The translations under genes were made by a program, and so were the position numbers. The notes below the pieces were generated by a model, which saw only the letters and a program-made list of their open reading frames with translations, made no database searches and was not told the origin of the DNA. A stretch of DNA of 60,768 nucleotides from a virus: the IMG/VR virus record IMGVR_UViG_3300045988_117276, one strand, 5' to 3'. Positions 2,607 to 60,768 of the stretch are shown piece after piece. Every line of letters begins with the position of its first letter. Positions within the stretch are counted from its first letter, which is position 1.

Positions 2607-5249
2607 TTATTCTAATTCTTCAATCAATGAATCTTCAACTTCTTCTATCAATTCTCCGCCACGAACTACAAGGCCACCGTTAGCTGCAGAAAATCCTTCC
2701 GACACAAATCCCTTACCGAAAGTTATCAATCCTTCTGCTTTGTCATCTTCAATGCTGCTAAGGGAGCGACGTTCAATCTCATCAATAATTCTTTTTGCCG
2801 AAAATGTATTGCGATCCGTAGGAACAGTCTTGTCATTCAAACCGATGAGATATATACTCGTTCCTCCACTTCCTGACACAGAACCGGTATATGCCTGTCC
2901 CTTGTATGTAAGAGAATCAAGTTTGCTTTCTATCTCGCCTATACGCGAATATGAGGCAGTCTCTCCAACCGTATAAATTGGATGATCGTAAGGAATATCC
3001 AGCGGCCACTCAAAACCAATTATTCTGGATTGTCTGCTTTTAGGAAAGAAAGCCTTATTGATCAGGTTAACTTTGTCTCCCACCTCATAGGTGATAATAT
3101 TCTCATTATTATAGATGAACTCAGGGTCCATATCACAATCGTAGGTGGAAGGATCAATCATAGACTTTTTGACATAGTCTTTTGCCTTTTTCAATAACTC
3201 ATCTTCGGCCTCCGGAATCAATTCTTCTGAGACATAAGCCGTATCAAAACCATAAAGAACATATGTGTCAGAATCAGCAGGAAACAAAATGTCATCAGGA
3301 AGGTAACGGCCGTAATCCTCATTACGCACAATTTCGAAAGTGGTACCGGAATCATCACTCTCCTGCAGAAGTAACTCAAAGTCCAGGCCGGCGAGTTTGC
3401 CCGTCTGAAAGGTCAAGCGGAAACTTTCTCCGTCCAGCCGGAAGTCATTTGTAAAATTCTTCAACCCTGCATCCTTGAACGTATAGATACGATACTTGTC
3501 TCCGGTTGGATTGTCGTCCTCGTCAAGTTCATCTTCCTCCCGGTATGTTACATTTGATAATGTGCCGACATATTTGGGATGTTCATCTTCAAAGATGACA
3601 ATTCCCTCTACAGCTTCTTCCTGCGACATCTCCACATTATTATTGTCATCATAATGAGTTTCACCAATGTATATACGTTCTCCAGTAGGACTATAACGGT
3701 AAGCATCCACATAAGGAACTTCCTCCGGGAGCATAAGACGTTTCTGGACCACACCATTTAAAGTAAGCTCCTTGTCATCTTTGCTAAAGTAGCTGTCAGG
3801 AACCTTTCCCTTAATGATGTTGTCAATTGTATATCTATCACCGAGCGAGGCCGTTACTCCGCTAGGCAATTGTATTACGTTAGCGGAATCACCGATTAAA
3901 TGGTCCGGATTATATACACAGGAGAATGTCTTACCCGAATTTAGTCCGGAAAGAAAGGTCACTGTAGCATCTGCCGACGATCCTTTGAATAGAGTTATAT
4001 CATACGAAACATAAGCCGAGAAAGAATCATTCAGAATAGAGGATTCACGGGATGGGACATGTGCGTATATCCTGATCTTTAAATCAGTAGCATTCCCTTC
4101 AATCTGCAAAGAAGAAGCGACAGCAAACACAGCAGAGACTTCGTACTGCTGCTCTTGGGATAAGGTAACCGTTTGATTACCTATAGAAACTTCTTTAGTT
4201 ACACCAGATAATTTATAGACATAAGATGCCCTCAAAACATAATCACCGGCAGGAAGAAAAGAACGTCCTGATCCGATTGAAGGAATAACCGTGGATACAT
4301 TAATTGATATGCCTTCTCCTGATGAAACCTTATAATCTCCTGCAGGTAACGAAGTTACGATATCAGTGTCATGCGTCCATTCTACATAAGATGCAGTAAA
4401 ACTGCCACTACCTATACTTTCCTTTACCGGATACTCTTCTTTGTGAACGACGCGACTTGGGAAATACTTTACATCAAGCGGTCTTGCCGTATCGGATATT
4501 TCCCTACCGTTTGCCTGCTTGACATCAAAAATAAGATTCTTACGGTAAGTAGAAGGAATGTTTCGCGTTGAACCAAAGGCATAAACACGAGTAGCGAAAA
4601 CCGTCTGACTATCGCTACGCTGCATGGAGCTTACGTTTACATCCTCAGTATCTGTCAAATCTCCGGCCTTGAAATCTACGGGAGAGCTGTATTCGCAACG
4701 TCCGAAATGAATTGTCTTATCAGTTATCCACCATTCACACTCCCATGTCTCCGCCATTTGGGTAAGGGCATCAATCAGGTTTACGCTATCATACGAAACG
4801 AGCTTGGAAGTGTTTTCAACCGTAGTGTCAATCTCATATTTAAAATCCTCTTCTCTATATTTGTATCCGAGTGATTTCAGGTTATCAAGGAAGACTTTAA
4901 GATGAACGTCAAGAGTGGCTGTCAGGTTCCAGCTCGCCTCGCGACCGGTACTCTCCGGAGTATAGAAAAACTTCTTGTTTTTCCACTTCCAGTAGTAGGC
5001 GTCCAGCCGGAGTTCGTAATCATAACCACCGCTCGTAGAATTATAGGTGGGCTTGTACAAGTCTACAAGCTCAAACATGCCAATATTTTCGTCATCAATG
5101 TAATCCCCGAGCTGAAAGTAGACAGGTTCAGCTAATGAGAACTTGAGAGTAATGTAATCAGAACTCATTAGCTGGAACTTTCTTTTACTACCTTCGTTGA
5201 TAGGAGTAGAAAAACGAATGTTGCCGGATATGTCTTTGATGTCTATCAT
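2607..5249 (-). CDS. Tail-associated/baseplate hub protein (Tal-like minor structural protein)
   Basis: 880-aa ORF directly after Dit and before the fibre. The N-terminus (MIDIKDISGNIRF...YDYELRLDAYYWKWKNKKFFY...CEWWITDKTIHFG) resembles siphophage Tal/prophage-tail proteins. The start is moved to the ATG at 5249 because the track start at 5285 lies inside a terminator hairpin. Confidence 0.7.
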   Translation of the reverse strand: MIDIKDISGNIRFSTPINEGSKRKFQLMSSDYITLKFSLAEPVYFQLGDYIDDENIGMFELVDLYKPTYNSTSGGYDYELRLDAYYWKWKNKKFFYTPESTGREASWNLTATLDVHLKVFLDNLKSLGYKYREEDFKYEIDTTVENTSKLVSYDSVNLIDALTQMAETWECEWWITDKTIHFGRCEYSSPVDFKAGDLTDTEDVNVSSMQRSDSQTVFATRVYAFGSTRNIPSTYRKNLIFDVKQANGREISDTARPLDVKYFPSRVVHKEEYPVKESIGSGSFTASYVEWTHDTDIVTSLPAGDYKVSSGEGISINVSTVIPSIGSGRSFLPAGDYVLRASYVYKLSGVTKEVSIGNQTVTLSQEQQYEVSAVFAVASSLQIEGNATDLKIRIYAHVPSRESSILNDSFSAYVSYDITLFKGSSADATVTFLSGLNSGKTFSCVYNPDHLIGDSANVIQLPSGVTASLGDRYTIDNIIKGKVPDSYFSKDDKELTLNGVVQKRLMLPEEVPYVDAYRYSPTGERIYIGETHYDDNNNVEMSQEEAVEGIVIFEDEHPKYVGTLSNVTYREEDELDEDDNPTGDKYRIYTFKDAGLKNFTNDFRLDGESFRLTFQTGKLAGLDFELLLQESDDSGTTFEIVRNEDYGRYLPDDILFPADSDTYVLYGFDTAYVSEELIPEAEDELLKKAKDYVKKSMIDPSTYDCDMDPEFIYNNENIITYEVGDKVNLINKAFFPKSRQSRIIGFEWPLDIPYDHPIYTVGETASYSRIGEIESKLDSLTYKGQAYTGSVSGSGGTSIYLIGLNDKTVPTDRNTFSAKRIIDEIERRSLSSIEDDKAEGLITFGKGFVSEGFSAANGGLVVRGGELIEEVEDSLIEELE

Positions 5250-5273
5250 ATCCCCAAAGTTCGGAGATAGAAG

Positions 5274-5298
5274 AAAAAAGCCCAAAACTTTTGGGCTT
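5274..5298 (-). terminator. Rho-independent terminator between Dit and Tal
   Basis: Minus strand reads AAGCCCAAAAGTTTTGGGCTTTTTTCTTC: a 6-8 bp stem, a short loop and a T6 run. Confidence 0.55.
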
Positions 5299-5338
5299 CA
5301 AGAAATAACACTTTGTATAAAGTTACATAATAGCAATT

Positions 5339-5755
5339 TTATATCCTATTTGAAGGATTCGGTTCGTTCAGCTTAACTGAAATCTTAGAAAACGTTCTTG
5401 CAGTATTGAAACCGAAAGATGCTGACCGGAGATAGTATAGATGATAAACCTCTTCACCTAATGCCGGAACTTTGACTGTAAATTCCCCCTTTGTTATCTC
5501 ATTCTGAAACGCCTTGTACTTGGCTGTATAATCGGATGGGGAACTTCCTTTCAGTGTAAATGTAAGAGTCAAATCCCGTTCGTCCACCTTTCTGTTCTCG
5601 ATTATAATTCTTTTCCCGTCTTGTAGACGCGATTTGTTTTCAATCACATCTTTCATCGGAAGTGGAGCGTAAATAGCTTCTATGAATCCATCTCCCATAT
5701 TGACTCCCCACATCGTGTAGGCATCTTTGTTATTGATTAGTAGGTCTCCTGTCAT
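5339..5755 (-). CDS. Distal tail protein (Dit-like)
   Basis: 138-aa ORF starting 4 nt after the tape-measure stop, the canonical Dit position. Start taken at the internal ATG at 5755 (MTGDLLINNKDAYTMWGV...). Confidence 0.6.
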   Translation of the reverse strand: MTGDLLINNKDAYTMWGVNMGDGFIEAIYAPLPMKDVIENKSRLQDGKRIIIENRKVDERDLTLTFTLKGSSPSDYTAKYKAFQNEITKGEFTVKVPALGEEVYHLYYLRSASFGFNTARTFSKISVKLNEPNPSNRI

Positions 5756-15796: not shown

Positions 15797-16087
15797 TTAA
15801 TCTCCTACGTAATGTGCGCCCATGTAACCTCTGCTACTAGGATTATAGATTTCCCCCGAGAAGTTATATCTTACCACCTCTGCCGGTCTACTGTTTTTAA
15901 GAGAGTCTAGTCTCTTTTCTTCTTCAGCTTTGCGTTTTGCGTCCGCTTCCTGTCTGGCTACGTCCAATTTGGCAAGTCTCCAAGTTGATTTTAGGACCTC
16001 ACCGAAGGTTTTACCTTGCTTCTTACCTACATACTTGTAGGTTCTATGTGCGGTGCGCATTATTTCTGATAAGTTGTAGCGTTTCAT
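15797..16087 (-). CDS. Small basic protein, paralogue of 40624..40881
   Basis: Shares the pattern IM(R/Q)xAxxxxxKYG...(L/A)(K/R)(S/T)(T/S)Wxx A(K/R)L with the 40624 ORF, and the upstream TATATTTGCATCAT promoter motif. Confidence 0.6.
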   Translation of the reverse strand: MKRYNLSEIMRTAHRTYKYVGKKQGKTFGEVLKSTWRLAKLDVARQEADAKRKAEEEKRLDSLKNSRPAEVVRYNFSGEIYNPSSRGYMGAHYVGD

Positions 16088-37689: not shown

Positions 37690-38402
<713 letters not shown>

Positions 38403-38403
<1 letters not shown>

Positions 38404-38687
38404 CACCTTGCCCATACTGAAACACTTTCGATAGATTTAACAGATTTATCTGAGCACGGAATAATCTCAATTGCATCCAGAATCTCTATCTCTGGAACCG
38501 TAACAGTGAATTTACATTCACCTGGATTAGTCGTACCATTGATCGCTAATTGCGATATGCTAGCAGCACCGTCCCAATACCATAATCTACGACAATTTTC
38601 GAGCTTAACTTCTCTACCATTTCTTTCTACTAACTCTCCAAAAAATACACCGGAATAATTTCCTCTTACAATTACTTTCTTTTTCAT
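38403..38687 (-). CDS. Hypothetical protein (94 aa)
   Basis: ORF coupled to the repeat-protein gene. Confidence 0.55.
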
Positions 38688-39515: not shown

Positions 39516-39758
39516 TTACTTTAACCGGATAACTGAGGTATATCCTGTATATTCAGTTTTTGAGACTCTAAACATTAAGTCTATCTTAGCTTTTAGCTTA
39601 TTAGTCAAGCGTGCCTCACGATTTCTTCTAGCAGCTTCAGACTTAATACCAATGTGACGTGATTCATCGTAGGGAATATTATAGATATCTCCTACTTTCA
39701 TAGCATCAAACACTTTAGTTGTTTGATAGCTTTCATCAATAACGATTTCTTTTACCAT
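39516..39758 (-). CDS. Hypothetical protein (80 aa)
   Basis: ORF 23 nt downstream of tRNA-like RNA no. 2. Confidence 0.5.
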   Translation of the reverse strand: MVKEIVIDESYQTTKVFDAMKVGDIYNIPYDESRHIGIKSEAARRNREARLTNKLKAKIDLMFRVSKTEYTGYTSVIRLK

Positions 39759-39781
39759 AAAATATTCATTTATAAATTGAG

Positions 39782-39861
39782 TGGACAGTGCTGGAGTCGA
39801 ACCAGCCTCACGGATTATTGATGCACTTCACCGTAGTTTCAGCCACGAGACATAACTGCCC
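39782..39861 (-). ncRNA. Non-canonical tRNA-like RNA no. 2 (80 nt)
   Basis: Acceptor stem GGGCAGT/ACTGTCC with G3.U70 and A73. U8. D loop with GG at positions 18-19. A 5-bp stem starting at position 27 closes a 17-nt loop (UGAAGUGCAUCAAUAAU). T arm GCTGG-TTCGACT-CCAGC. Confidence 0.55.
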
Positions 39862-40070
39862 GTTTGCCTGTATCACTTTAGATACAGGGCTTTACATTGA
39901 AATACAACAGATATCAATATTCTCACGAACGACGATATCTCCTTAAAGTATATTTTTATTATTTTCATTTTTCCATTTAAAAAGGGATGCACTATCTTCA
40001 CAGACAATACACCCCGAACACACAAACACAAAATAAAAACACGACAAAACAAAAAGTTTTAAGTAGCTAA

Positions 40071-40232
40071 TTACTCTTCTCTCTCTAGTCTCTTTTTGTT
40101 TTTCTCTATGCACACTTGACACAATGCAAATGCGACAAAAGAAAGCCAAAAAACAACATTAAATTCATTTGCGAACAATATCGTCATGGCAAGAGATATT
40201 ATCCAAATAATAAATAATGGTATACGTTTCAT
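40071..40232 (-). CDS. Possible small membrane protein (53 aa, below the track cutoff)
   Basis: Own translation: MKRIPLFIIWIISLAMTILFANEFNVVFWLSFVAFALCQVCIEKNKKRLEREE. Two hydrophobic helices. Confidence 0.4.
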   Translation of the reverse strand: MKRIPLFIIWIISLAMTILFANEFNVVFWLSFVAFALCQVCIEKNKKRLEREE

Positions 40233-40239
40233 ATTATAT

Positions 40240-40620
40240 ATGTATTAGTTAGTGCCCGCACCTTGATCCGATCAAGACTCACGCAAACAGTGCAACTGTT
40301 CGTGCGGGCTATATATTAACTTACTCACGTTGCTTCCTTCCGCTCATATCATCGCTGGTTGGCTATTACGCTATACTTCGCATCGGCTATACTGCTTATC
40401 TGCGCAGGCTACTTTAACGTGCCCTGAACACGACTTCATTTTTGAGGGTTAAGCCTCCCATCCCGAATTGGGATTCATCGGTTTACCGTTGTGCCCGTAG
40501 CAAATATTCTCTACGTTGATACGGGCTTTTATCCCCCGTCCGACTGGTTTCCCTTACTCACAGCGCTGATTGTCGTAGGTGCTTTATGTCGGATTATCAG
40601 ACTACCTTTTTACGGGTTAT
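40240..40620. other. Non-coding, hairpin- and repeat-dense island (candidate structured RNA or origin)
   Basis: No ORF of 60 aa or more in any frame. A three-way junction at 40254..40309. Hairpins at 40460..40474 and 40493..40526. Competing helices at 40539..40600. GGCTA(T/C) repeats at 40361, 40385 and 40407. The 9-mer CTTACTCAC occurs at 40320 and 40553. Confidence 0.6.
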
Positions 40621-40623
40621 ATC

Positions 40624-40881
40624 TTATCTCCAAGAACTATCATAATTGACATATTTATCAGCAAAGAATGCTTTCAACACATTTCCCTGTTTTGGTTCAA
40701 TCGTTCTCGGATTCAATGATGCTACATATTCATCCATTTTGAGGCGAGCGTCCACCCAAGAAGTACGCAAGGCAGATTTCAGAGAATAACCATACTTGTG
40801 AACGTAAGCCCAAGCTCTTTGCATGATGGCTTTCATGTTATACTTACCATTTCTTACAAGTTCATAATCTCTAGTTTTCAT
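40624..40881 (-). CDS. Small basic protein, paralogue of 15797..16087
   Basis: IMQRAWAYVHKYGYSLKSALRTSWVDARLKM aligns with IMRTAHRTYKYVGKKQGKTFGEVLKSTWRLAKLDV. Confidence 0.6.
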   Translation of the reverse strand: MKTRDYELVRNGKYNMKAIMQRAWAYVHKYGYSLKSALRTSWVDARLKMDEYVASLNPRTIEPKQGNVLKAFFADKYVNYDSSWR

Positions 40882-40958
40882 AACTTTCTTACTTTTAATG
40901 CATTTATACTATTGCGAATCTCTGCCAAGTTGCGTATCCTTGTAGCGGTTCGATGATG

Positions 40959-40966
40959 CAAATATA
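40959..40966 (-). promoter_or_regulatory. -7 box TATATTTG for 40624..40881
   Basis: The plus strand reads caaatata within gatgatgcaaatata, the same context as 16134..16141. Confidence 0.45.
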
Positions 40967-41058
40967 CTGATTTATTTTCAGCGCACAAAGATTGTACTGA
41001 TTTTATTTCAGTATTAAATATTATTTAACTATTAGAGTAGTTTATACCTTATTATAAT

Positions 41059-41667
41059 ATGAAGAAAGAAAGTAAAGATAGAAATTGGATAGCGTGGATA
41101 GCACTTGGCTTGAGTGTTATTGCGATAATAGTAAGTGTTATTGCAATATGTATTGCATGCCCTCATATGCCTGAATTGGGATTTGATTATCAAGGAATAA
41201 TAGTGGGTATATTAGCATTATTAGTAACTATGCTAATTGGTTGGAATATCTTCTCTATTATTGATATAAGAAAAATAAGAGATGAATTATTGACTACAAA
41301 GGTTAGCTCTGTATTCAATGCCGAAAAGAATAATGCAATAACATGCCATGCTGTATCTGATTATTATTATCATGTGCTATTAAAATCAGACCCTTTAGGT
41401 ATCGAATATCAATTTCTTTATTACAGAATAAGTGAATTATTTCATGTGTCAAATATAGGAGACACAGAAACTTGTAATATAATAGTCAAGGTTTTATTGG
41501 AAATGATTAAATCGCCCGAAGATATACATATCCTGCAAAGTTGTAAGGATAGGCTTATAGGATTATTGTCAATGGTTAATGAAAAAGAGAAAATAATAAA
41601 GTACAATGAATTAATGTCTGTTATTGCAAGACTAGGTACTAAGCCACGTGACAATAAACAGCCTTAA
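41059..41667 (+). CDS. Two-TM membrane protein with a cytoplasmic domain (202 aa), next to the repressor
   Basis: TM segments WIAWIALGLSVIAIIVSVIAICIA and IIVGILALLVTMLIGWNIFSII. Confidence 0.6.
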   Translation: MKKESKDRNWIAWIALGLSVIAIIVSVIAICIACPHMPELGFDYQGIIVGILALLVTMLIGWNIFSIIDIRKIRDELLTTKVSSVFNAEKNNAITCHAVSDYYYHVLLKSDPLGIEYQFLYYRISELFHVSNIGDTETCNIIVKVLLEMIKSPEDIHILQSCKDRLIGLLSMVNEKEKIIKYNELMSVIARLGTKPRDNKQP

Positions 41668-59268: not shown

Positions 59269-60768
59269 TTATGCCGTTTTATTCCTTCCTATAACTACGA
59301 CCTCAAATGCACTATTAATCCATCCCTGGTCTTTATGAAATGTCTTTACTGTAAAAGTATTGGACTGTTTATCGGATATTATACAAATAGTCCAATTTTC
59401 ATTTACCCCTGTAGCTATTATAAAATAATCAGTATGATTTAAATCGTGCCGAAAGACATAGTTACCTGTATCCGTCCTGCTGACACTCATATAACACCCA
59501 TCCCCCCATCTGTTTGATATACCACCTGCTCCTGTGATGCGTCCAGCCCATAACGCTCCCGGAGCATTCCATTTTTCGCCTTTTCTCTGAATAAATTCAT
59601 GCGATCCAGCGCTTGAAATCGCATTAGATGCTCCATTACCAAGAATACTTAATACGTCTTTACCCGAACCTCCACTAAGACTCACAGCAGATCCTTTGTC
59701 ATTTCTTACTGAAAGTAGCGCAGCAGCAGGATTTCTCATTCCATACTCATTTATGCGAAGGAAATGAACACCATTCTCTTCAATTAAGATTGATCCATTC
59801 TCATTTAGAGAAGAAAGCGCATCACCCTCAATTTTAAAGCCCGCTATTTTCCCACCATCGGCCTCAATAGTTCCTTTGAATATGTACTTCTTAGTTAACG
59901 GATCAAGTTCAAAGACTATCTCATTATCAACCAGTGCGAAAATTCCGGTACGCTTTTCTCCGTCAACTGTGATACAATCTCGACCAATAGCAACTCCGGT
60001 CAGTTTACCATTGCTATCCTTCGTACCAGAAAACATCTTTGGGGATACGATATACTCCCCGTCAATCTCTGTCTTATTATTATTCCATTGTTCGACCCAA
60101 GGGAGTAGATTCGCGTCTTTTCCGTCCTCTCCCGGAATACCAGGTTCACCCGGTTTACCATCCTTCCCGTAATGACCAAAGAGACGATAGTTCTTATACT
60201 CTCCCCACTTTCCATCTTGCAGAGTACGCTCACAAGTGTACTCATAAGGATAAGTTTCCGATGCTCCACGAGGATTATCCACCCACCAGAGCACATCTTC
60301 CCAGTATGTTTCATTAGTCGGAACAATCCCCGAATGCGCCTGAATAGCTACCTTGTATACATCATTGTATTTTACTATGTTACCTGCCGAATAGAATTTT
60401 GAGCTACTGTATTCAGGAGCATCACCAATGTATTCGTTAACATATTCGTTGGATGCCGGAAGGTCAATAACATTACGCTTAGACTTTGCAAGCAGGTAAA
60501 CCTGCTCCTCGGTCTTGGAGTCCGTTGGGAATATGACAGGTTCGCTCCAGGAAGGAGTTGTTTTACCATCAATCACTGCAGTGGAATACCAACAGGTAGT
60601 AGGATCGAGCATACGAAACTTGACTCTGTCCTCGTTACTACTTGTGCTGCTGTCTTTCGTGTATACAATTTCAACAAAGTGACTGCCGGCTGTAGGCACT
60701 GCAATATCCACCACCACATTGGTTACTCCACTTCCCTCCCAGGCATGTTCGTTGGAACTGCTATATGA
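59269..60768 (-). CDS. Giant collagen-like tail fibre, C-terminal 499 codons plus stop (5' part is 2605..56)
   Basis: The frame is open to the window end: codons upstream of the track's GTG 'start' at 60717 read ...SYSSSNEHAWEGSGVTN. Contains GKDGKPGEPGIPGEDGKD. Confidence 0.85.
   Translation of the reverse strand, partial: SYSSSNEHAWEGSGVTNVVVDIAVPTAGSHFVEIVYTKDSSTSSNEDRVKFRMLDPTTCWYSTAVIDGKTTPSWSEPVIFPTDSKTEEQVYLLAKSKRNVIDLPASNEYVNEYIGDAPEYSSSKFYSAGNIVKYNDVYKVAIQAHSGIVPTNETYWEDVLWWVDNPRGASETYPYEYTCERTLQDGKWGEYKNYRLFGHYGKDGKPGEPGIPGEDGKDANLLPWVEQWNNNKTEIDGEYIVSPKMFSGTKDSNGKLTGVAIGRDCITVDGEKRTGIFALVDNEIVFELDPLTKKYIFKGTIEADGGKIAGFKIEGDALSSLNENGSILIEENGVHFLRINEYGMRNPAAALLSVRNDKGSAVSLSGGSGKDVLSILGNGASNAISSAGSHEFIQRKGEKWNAPGALWAGRITGAGGISNRWGDGCYMSVSRTDTGNYVFRHDLNHTDYFIIATGVNENWTICIISDKQSNTFTVKTFHKDQGWINSAFEVVVIGRNKTA
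60714..60768. repeat. Terminal direct duplication, identical to 1..55
   Basis: See 1..55. Confidence 0.95.

Follow-up and report, generated by a model that had tools for sequence, protein, structure and literature searches.

Evidence for a minus-strand array of structured RNA modules, built around a pseudoknotted RNA without an Rfam family, in a non-coding island of a phage genome

The 60,768-nt viral DNA of IMG/VR record IMGVR_UViG_3300045988_117276 (this whole stretch is called the window below) carries at 40240..40620 a non-coding island, which the original prediction, made by eye on the plus strand, had presented as either a large structured RNA or a replication origin. We find that the island is very probably an array of structured RNAs on the minus strand, which is also the strand of the genes, and that it consists of four independent RNA domains, which we call B1, B2, W and X′. 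The core of the array, W, is an RNA of ~180 nt with two pseudoknots that matches no family in Rfam 15. Comparison with related phages reveals structure at the level of RNA that is under purifying selection, assigns it to one strand, and uncovers both its conservation and a mosaicism in which modules are exchanged like cassettes. We further propose that the array is part of an early transcript from which processed RNAs would be released to act in trans, and we give this explanation as a whole a probability of roughly 0.45.

Module W occupies 40315..40496 on the minus strand, where a covariance model (R1) built from 13 W representatives scores 211.9 bits. Relatives of W were fetched by exact-pattern scans of its conserved stretches in IMG/VR and in human-gut metagenomes, and among the matches listed W was present in >100 contigs of each collection. 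There are 63 distinct W sequences of 181–245 nt, falling into ~16 groups at <97% identity. In GTDB the scans found W in just two species representatives, an uncultured Bacteroides sp. and Phocaeicola acetigenes; the latter provides a cultivable lysogen (strain KGMB11183, contig NZ_JAPZVM010000009), with W at 2996-3215 of locus L208, and a Bacteroides faecis carrier is a further candidate lysogen; W is absent from the cultured phages of INPHARED, which gave only tiny matches to this phage. Searching the window with R1 returned a single credible copy, the one in the island. A second candidate at 60068..60168 on the minus strand (17.5 bits, E = 0.006) lies inside an open reading frame (ORF; 59269..60717) and was taken as noise, and R1 found no divergent W in the BLAST-negative relatives (L030–L066; L numbers are used here for individual loci).

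The 5′ half of W is formed by two stacked H-type pseudoknots with A-rich crossing strands, which run into helix Hd (40404-40401/40382-40379; all helices are on the minus strand) and a 3′ domain. Pseudoknot 1 comprises helices Hb (40459-40457/40448-40446) and PK1 (40455-40451/40436-40432) and is crossed by CUCAAAAAUG, and pseudoknot 2 comprises helices Hc (40431-40429/40421-40419) and PK2 (40426-40423/40408-40405) and is crossed by GUUAAAGUAG. Helix Ha lies at 40481-40478/40466-40463. The 3′ domain, in which Hf (40371-40369/40329-40327) encloses He (40355-40354/40343-40342), is tentative. The two pseudoknots, which are the main structure of W, were missed in the by-eye reading. Every motif string listed there is present at its position, and two of the motifs within W take on another meaning: ATCCC at 40460 and GGGAT at 40470 do not keep their proposed pairing in relatives, and the GGCTAY strings at 40361, 40385 and 40407 are conserved AUAGCC/GUAGCC segments of W with differing structural roles, rather than the repeats or iterons they had been taken for. 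A fourth copy of GGCTAY lies at 40307.

Support for this structure comes from the pattern of substitutions among the W variants. In the 63-row alignment the eight helices are paired in 99.5% of 1788 cells, compared with 29–46% when partners are slid by 1–3 columns; 13 of the 29 pairs are changed on both sides, and none of 500 shuffles reached any of five pairing measures. The shuffle control ignores phylogeny, whereas the slid-partner control and the counts of pair types are robust to it. PK1 alone occurs in seven versions (GGCUU/AAGCC, GGCUU/AAGUC, GGAUU/AAUCC, GACUU/AAGUC, AGGGA/UCCUU, GAGGC/GCUUC and UGGUA/UACCA), and six versions of PK2, four of Hb and three of Hd were seen. Because neither Hb nor PK2 was in the model that made the alignment, the support for these two helices is independent of that model, and RNAalifold on its own recovers Ha, PK1, PK2 and Hd. 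Hc is misaligned in the insertion variants, and its covariation was read by eye (UGUGU/ACACA, GUCUU/AAGAC and AGUGU/ACACU). In addition, 97 cells of the alignment hold G·U pairs that fit the minus strand only, since on the plus strand they would become A·C mismatches.

W sequences differ in length by 8, 21, 37–38, 55 or 63 nt, with hairpin-shaped insertions at three variable sites. Such differences ignore the reading frame and all frames contain stops, which argues that W is not coding. Many of the unpaired nucleotides are invariant, and overall ~100 positions are. No U-tract follows W. A third pseudoknot (H0), between the 3 nt before AAACCGAUGA and the Ha loop, was considered and set aside (a best helix length of 3.1, compared with 2.7 for mismatched partners, and a shifting register). 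An all-against-all column scan for further long-range pairs was dominated by lineage correlations; its sole plausible extra pair, an extension adjacent to Hd (columns 121/162), was left out of the structure.

X′, at 40254..40309 on the minus strand, is a three-way junction with an 8-bp closing stem (P1) and two hairpins, followed by AC. This junction had been recognized in the original prediction, and its closing strands GCCCGCAC (40254) and GTGCGGGC (40302) are confirmed; it folds better than shuffled sequence (z = −3.2) and is kept in relatives. Over 15 variants 99% of cells are paired and three P1 pairs are changed on both sides, whereas the second hairpin is invariant. U·G intermediates, together with an alternation of G·U and A-U in hairpin a, are compatible with the minus strand only. 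The covariation and G·U pairs of W and X′ thus place the RNA on the minus strand, reversing the orientation in which the island had been read.

A scan of 20 relatives with Rfam identified DUF2693-FD RNA (RF02926, Rfam type 'Gene; sRNA') at eight loci, with 54–78 bits, in the slot that X′ occupies here. Both RNAs are three-way junctions of 49–56 nt with a closing stem of the GCCC.../...GGGC type, both have AUAUA as 5′ flank and AC as 3′ flank, and both stand just ahead of a G/U-rich tract and terminator (in L068, L151 and L030). The internal hairpins of X′ and its junction strand (UUGCGUGAGU) are, however, otherwise arranged, and X′ stays below the gathering score of RF02926 (44.5 bits), with no match at E≤10 in searches of 1.6 kb or 406 nt. 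We conclude that X′ is DUF2693-FD-like and not a member of the family. W has nothing in common with RF02926. A 2017 screen of Bacteroidales-type sequences by Weinberg and colleagues is reportedly the source of DUF2693-FD; the name is absent from the main text of that paper. No DUF2693 protein was found near the array among the ORFs scanned.

The two remaining modules lie upstream of W on the minus strand. B1 (40535..40616) is a multi-branch domain with stems P1 (CCCGU/ACGGG) and P2 (UCCGAC/GUCGGA). It occurs as three sequence types, and from one type to the next both strands of P1 are altered (CCCGC/GCGGG in L055, UCCGC/GCGGA in L024). P2 corresponds to the stem between TCCGAC at 40539 and GTCGGA at 40588, which the original prediction had already picked out and which is kept in relatives; its proposed competitor, CTGAT at 40566 with ATCAG at 40596, is present as strings and is not kept as a pairing. 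The 9-mer CTTACTCAC, found at 40320 and again at 40553, is estimated to be roughly a 0.3 chance event in 380 nt. B2 (40493..40526), directly 5′ of W, is a hairpin (GCCCGUA...UACGGGC) with a conserved loop, CGUAGAGAAUAUU, and folds better than shuffled sequence (z = −4.0). As read by eye (GCCCGTA at 40493, TACGGGC at 40520) this hairpin was correct, and the TTTT beside it is no terminator, because on the minus strand these are A's that precede the hairpin. The B2 loop recurs in L031 on another stem, GCUUGCGUAGA/UCUACGCAAGU. In every lineage a G-C-closed unit ending in GGG(C/A/U)AC lies 5–8 nt upstream of W, and this unit may be a hairpin, a junction or DUF2693-FD itself. Since W is preceded by some such unit in every lineage, B2 may be the variable basal domain of W.

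The island stands out from its surroundings in composition. Its G+C content is 47.0%, compared with 29.3% and 35.7% in the 300-nt flanks and 38.8% in the whole window, in line with the earlier count of 28/60 in two 60-mers, which we reproduce. As previously noted, ORFs of ≥60 aa are absent from it (52, 46 and 40 aa being the greatest lengths), and each of the six frames contains stop codons of all three kinds. A recoded or alternative-code ORF is therefore excluded, since reassignment of a single stop opens no frame. Infernal scans with Rfam models gave no match in the island at gathering score and, at E≤10 in searches of 1.6 kb and of 406 nt, only an 11.5-bit chance match to PK-repBA. ARAGORN reported no tRNA or transfer-messenger RNA (tmRNA) inside 40240..40620 and none in the window, and the models of the Rfam tRNA clan likewise gave nothing inside the island. 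A template or variable repeat of a diversity-generating retroelement was also rejected, because no island segment has a second copy in the window; the longest match of the island to the rest of the window is 13 nt (E = 0.34).

The array is mosaic in related phages. We compared 68 IMG/VR loci fetched via the adjacent 85-aa gene (40624..40881, minus strand). Positions 40228..40496 are 94–99% identical in many of them and 76–82% identical where the flanking protein is ~50% identical, and 40497..40623 is swapped in most relatives for a 57-aa ORF and a different folded (junction) element. In a large group whose flanking gene is 84–85% identical, similarity to the island is undetectable while region 39966..40068 is kept, and different modules are found even in phages whose flanking gene is 94–100% identical. 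W itself is always preceded by 1–3 small genes and lies, also in distant lineages, on the side of cro relative to a repressor-like gene; the modules after it (X′, Y+X, V, U or hairpins) and the genes that come next vary with the lineage. This variation disfavors a classical riboswitch for one downstream gene, and the combination of a constant place before one gene family with an expression platform, as for a riboswitch or cis-acting leader, was not found for W. The relatives have tRNA or tRNA-like genes near their arrays. The earlier description of a non-coding, structured RNA with a tRNA-like gene as its neighbor is supported, and the setting is the early region of a prophage.

At least six other folded modules that recur and have no Rfam family (labels used here: X2, Y, Z, V and U) were seen downstream of the 85-aa homologue or of W in L030, L031, L056, L057, L059, L062, L064, L066, L068, L074 and L164. 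They are interleaved with tiny ORFs, such as the 57-aa ORF and a 29-aa hydrophobic peptide, and several of them have compensatory stem changes and conserved loops, among them Y (loop GGUUAGGCG) and V (CCUGA/UCAGG versus CCCGA/UCGGG). In L030 the array and the tRNA-like gene are separated, at 4637..5595, by a gene for a serine resolvase/invertase and a fragment of MutS domain I, which is another sign that the locus is an insertion hotspot.

The position of the island suggests a transcript to which it would belong. A Bacteroides-type early promoter (TTTG-N19-TATATTTG) is predicted at 40989..40959 on the minus strand, upstream of the 85-aa gene and the island, and is the only canonical −33/−7 match (TTTG-N19-TAnnTTTG) on either strand of 39700..41100. 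A same-strand canonical promoter lies 450–600 nt upstream of W in 29 of 55 distinct contexts, and none of the 55 has one inside W or ≤700 nt downstream. The early RNA is predicted to end at an intrinsic terminator (40015..39984; a 14-bp stem with a GUGA loop, then U5) that follows a G/U-rich tract (40068..40016), both on the minus strand. The tract and terminator region (39979..40068) is ~80% conserved in loci with otherwise unrelated arrays. The terminator apex GGUCUGUGAAGAUAG, with its GUGA tetraloop and a G·A mismatch, is conserved on a covarying lower stem after most W arrays and others, which suggests that the terminator is a recognized element rather than a generic one; some arrays have no terminator motif. 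A 10-mer of the apex, GUGAAGAUAG, is shared with module V in other arrays, and the terminator and G/U tract have weak Rfam similarities to the Bacteroides sRNAs BTnc049 (E = 2.8) and BTnc201 (E = 7.8). The predicted transcript of ~1 kb would thus contain the 85-aa gene, the island, a 53-aa mini-ORF and the G/U-rich tract. Genes past the terminator are a tRNA-like gene, an 80-aa gene, a GerE/sigma-like gene and recombination genes.

The 85-aa gene is the first early gene and belongs to the PHROG 30054 family, in the position of cro opposite the repressor-side genes. In L030 the divergent neighbor encodes a CI-like repressor (HTH_3 plus Peptidase_S24) and is followed by an integrase gene. A single remote family (PHROG 30054/8305) accounts for every gene found immediately upstream of W, including those in distant lineages; the gene of L208 (3270-3554, minus strand) is an example. 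The 85-aa protein has no sequence match in Pfam, NCBIfam or PDB, all its homologues are annotated 'hypothetical', and its AlphaFold model (pLDDT 76), a helical hairpin, gave no Foldseek match at E≤0.001. A 96-aa ORF elsewhere in the window (15797..16087, minus strand) is a remote homologue (BLASTP 4e-05) that shares the motif YN(M/L)KxIMxxAW...LKS(A/T)W, and its product has an insignificant 17.7-bit match to AcrIIA3_fam. The product of the 53-aa mini-ORF (40071..40232, minus strand), which lies between X′ and the terminator region, has two predicted membrane helices and a charged tail, and it may act as a small membrane toxin, in exclusion or like a holin. The ORF is conserved at the protein level in L002, where some amino acids differ, has a weak match to PHROG 29501 and is missing in relatives where X′ directly precedes the terminator.

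One explanation that joins these observations is that the island is the non-coding middle of an immediate-early minus-strand transcript of a temperate Bacteroides/Phocaeicola phage, which would start at the promoter (40989..40959) and end at the terminator (40015..39984). RNA domains would be cut out of this transcript by processing of the RNase P/RNase Z type, and the freed domains would be stable, trans-acting RNAs that are already produced in the initial minutes after induction or infection. Probably they would bind proteins of the host or the phage and so serve as accessory functions, in host takeover or in counter-defence. Processing of this type is suggested by the observation that most module stems are followed by AC and an A/U-rich stretch, as are the tRNA genes of these phages. 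The changing upstream and downstream neighbors argue that the modules are not a leader for one gene. Swaps of modules between otherwise near-identical phages are typical of accessory or counter-defence functions and favor such a function, which in turn would account for the exchange of modules as cassettes. Taken separately, the mechanism of processed, trans-acting RNAs is a tentative proposal whose odds we judge to fall somewhat short of even. A bolder version, which we regard as doubtful, makes W the founder of a novel phage RNA class that is active in itself, either catalytically or by sequestering a protein and so disarming a host factor or defence, within a hypervariable island of RNA cassettes near cro in the early operons of Bacteroides prophages. 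W, DUF2693-FD, X′, Y, V and other modules, along with tRNA mimics that have alanine identity and abnormal anticodon loops, would then be freed by tRNA-processing enzymes, and the modules would be traded between phages like anti-defence genes.

Several points weigh against the explanation of processed, early trans-acting RNAs. The minimum free energy of the whole island (391 nt) is unremarkable relative to shuffled sequences (z = −0.46 on the minus strand and −1.19 on the plus strand), as is the folding of B1 (z = +0.85); the real signal of the island is comparative, not thermodynamic. Because retrieval was by exact patterns, all W sequences share the 5′ consensus, so that their diversity is biased and the lineages are few, and with only ~16 groups at <97% identity the independent covariation events must be far fewer than the cells counted. 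The 'AC' punctuation is a by-eye reading of ~10 module types and has exceptions (X of L062 ends in AUC). Promoter and terminator are consensus predictions. A search for partners or targets found no significant complementarity between the island and the rest of the window. Finally, the array stands before a conserved terminator, and no canonical promoter was found for the genes past it, an arrangement that fits control in cis equally well.

Such control in cis is the first alternative that we considered. The folded modules would either act on the very polymerase that transcribes them, by analogy with HK022 put, or recruit a phage protein, by analogy with lambda nut/N, and would in this way affect elongation and allow read-through of the terminator at 40015..39984 into the delayed-early genes. 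Its position matches that of cro-nutR-tR1, after the first gene opposite a CI-like repressor and before a strong terminator, and, like put and nut, it comes after the early promoter of an operon under repressor control and ahead of the first early terminator there. No canonical promoter was found between the terminator and the next genes, just as none was found past W in the contexts described above, and downstream expression therefore seems to need read-through. The conserved terminator apex on its covarying stem, with the 10-mer shared with module V, suggests recognition, and the gene upstream of W, always of one remote family, could supply a cognate factor. The size and the evolution of the array fit this analogy less well. 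HK022 put consists of two hairpins of ~70 nt and lambda boxB is a 15-nt hairpin, so that put and nut elements measure 15–70 nt, whereas the arrays offer 370–900 nt of interchangeable modules with no sequence or structural likeness to put or nut that we could find. Wholesale replacement of W between nearly the same flanking genes would be odd for one polymerase or factor, some arrays do without the terminator motif, the strict promoter pattern may have overlooked weaker promoters, and the helical hairpin predicted for the upstream protein is not a recognizable RNA-binding fold. We consider control in cis unlikely, although it is the best of the alternatives.

The modules might instead serve only the processing or stability of an early mRNA, as ribozymes, RNase entry sites or blocks to exonucleases. 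They are intercistronic or in the 3′ untranslated region, have stable G-C closing stems and alternate with small ORFs in relatives, and the many invariant unpaired nucleotides of W recall catalytic cores. Weinberg et al. reportedly found in 2015 that self-cleaving ribozymes cluster in phage-like regions. However, no match to hammerhead, twister, twister-sister, pistol, hatchet, HDV-like or glmS ribozymes was obtained even at E≤10, and two pseudoknots with ~100 invariant positions would be needless for simple stabilizers. These considerations make a role confined to processing or stability improbable.

An element acting as DNA (an origin, an origin with primer RNA, or a cluster of operator inverted repeats) is less probable by far. 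X′ does contain two perfect palindromes, CTTGATCGGATCAAG and AACAGTTGCACTGTT, which are invariant and whose folding is as good on one strand as on the other, genes of recombination and replication type lie downstream of the island, and GGCTAY is locally enriched (four copies in 106 nt). These copies are nevertheless segments of W rather than iterons: Tandem Repeats Finder detected no tandem repeat in the island, and the best direct repeat there, 16 nt at 75% identity, is not iteron-like. Covariation of pseudoknots and G·U pairs that fit one strand only are unexpected for sites in duplex DNA, and W can be exchanged for other modules. The cumulative GC skew has its minimum at ~40940, away from the island and at the switch in gene orientation; this is the meeting point of divergent operons and hence not specific to the island. 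The replication origin offered in the original prediction is thus not borne out. A hidden or decayed protein gene, possibly in an alternative code, has next to no standing, since the plus-strand ORFs of 40–52 aa in the island and the 70-aa reverse-strand ORF over the equivalent region of L030-type loci are set against three kinds of stop in six frames, indels that are mostly not multiples of three, and compensatory substitutions in helices.

Beyond the terminator, ~400 nt from the island, lies a separate, complete cloverleaf at 39782..39862 on the minus strand. This non-canonical tRNA-like gene, missed by ARAGORN in default mode, has a G3·U70 pair, discriminator A, a normal T arm and a 17-nt anticodon loop. 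Odd tRNA-like genes, all with G3·U70, occupy the same slot in L024 (5189-5258), L002 (4047-4117), L055 (4972-5055) and L030 (5723-5805); the tRNA-like genes of relatives have 6-nt or 8-nt loops, and ARAGORN outputs them as 'tRNA-???'. They may be mimics or decoys that alanyl-tRNA synthetase can charge. Elsewhere in the window, a 241-aa protein gene (37690..38415, minus strand) has GYGSGS-type repeats in its N-terminal half, which give rise to an island of 62% G+C at 38120..38420; it adjoins a DUF6948 gene (38403..38687).

Among known RNAs, the original prediction had noted a resemblance of the island, taken together with the nearby tRNA-like gene, to the GOLLD/ROOL class. Like the island, GOLLD and ROOL are phage- or prophage-borne, often tRNA-adjacent and multi-domain, with variable peripheral parts. 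Their association with prophages and tRNAs is stated in PMC5737381. Membership of the class is nevertheless not supported: neither model (GOLLD, RF01998; ROOL, RF03087) matched even at E≤10, and these RNAs measure ~500–800 nt, compared with 181–245 nt for the conserved unit W and ~370 nt for the island. GOLLD and ROOL each have one conserved fold and occur in other hosts, whereas the modules of the island are separable cassettes.

Serial H-type pseudoknots are found in tmRNA (PK2–PK4) and in the upstream pseudoknot domain of tobamoviruses, which stands beside a tRNA-like structure. W resembles both in its adjacent H-type pseudoknots with A-rich crossing strands and end-to-end stacking, and tmRNA has in G3·U70 the same alanine identity pair as the nearby tRNA-like gene. 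Unlike tmRNA, W has neither an ARAGORN tmRNA match nor a tag ORF, and the tRNA-like gene is separate.

DicF is one of the prophage small RNAs (sRNAs) that derive from early or leader transcripts. IsrK (PMC4825925) and StxS (PMC7547250) are likewise trans-acting sRNAs from early or leader, or prematurely terminated, prophage transcripts, and these RNAs are precedents for the mechanism proposed here. All three, like the island, belong to prophage operons controlled by a repressor or by antitermination, and the end of the predicted island transcript, a G/U tract with a terminator, is sRNA-like. They are short, simple base-pairing RNAs, whereas W is a large pseudoknotted fold. As judged against Rfam 15, we conclude that W is a previously unclassified RNA; the large catalogues of unnamed candidate phage RNAs (PMC10690425, with 10,006 csRNAs from IMG/VR, and PMC8040213) lie outside this comparison.

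The array gives the orphan motif DUF2693-FD, the nearest described relative of the system, its first context, as an interchangeable unit of a modular RNA array that is placed between the early promoter and a conserved terminator and is adjoined by non-canonical tRNA-like genes. With two covariation-backed pseudoknots and ~100 invariant positions, W has a complexity of the order of riboswitches and ribozymes. In the human gut, the prophages of Bacteroides and Phocaeicola rank with the most abundant mobile elements, and their early regulation is almost unstudied; the array context opens the way to concrete experiments in a cultivable lysogen. If the modules do act as counter-defence or host-takeover RNAs, the array would be an RNA counterpart of the islands of protein 'accessory genes' in other phages.

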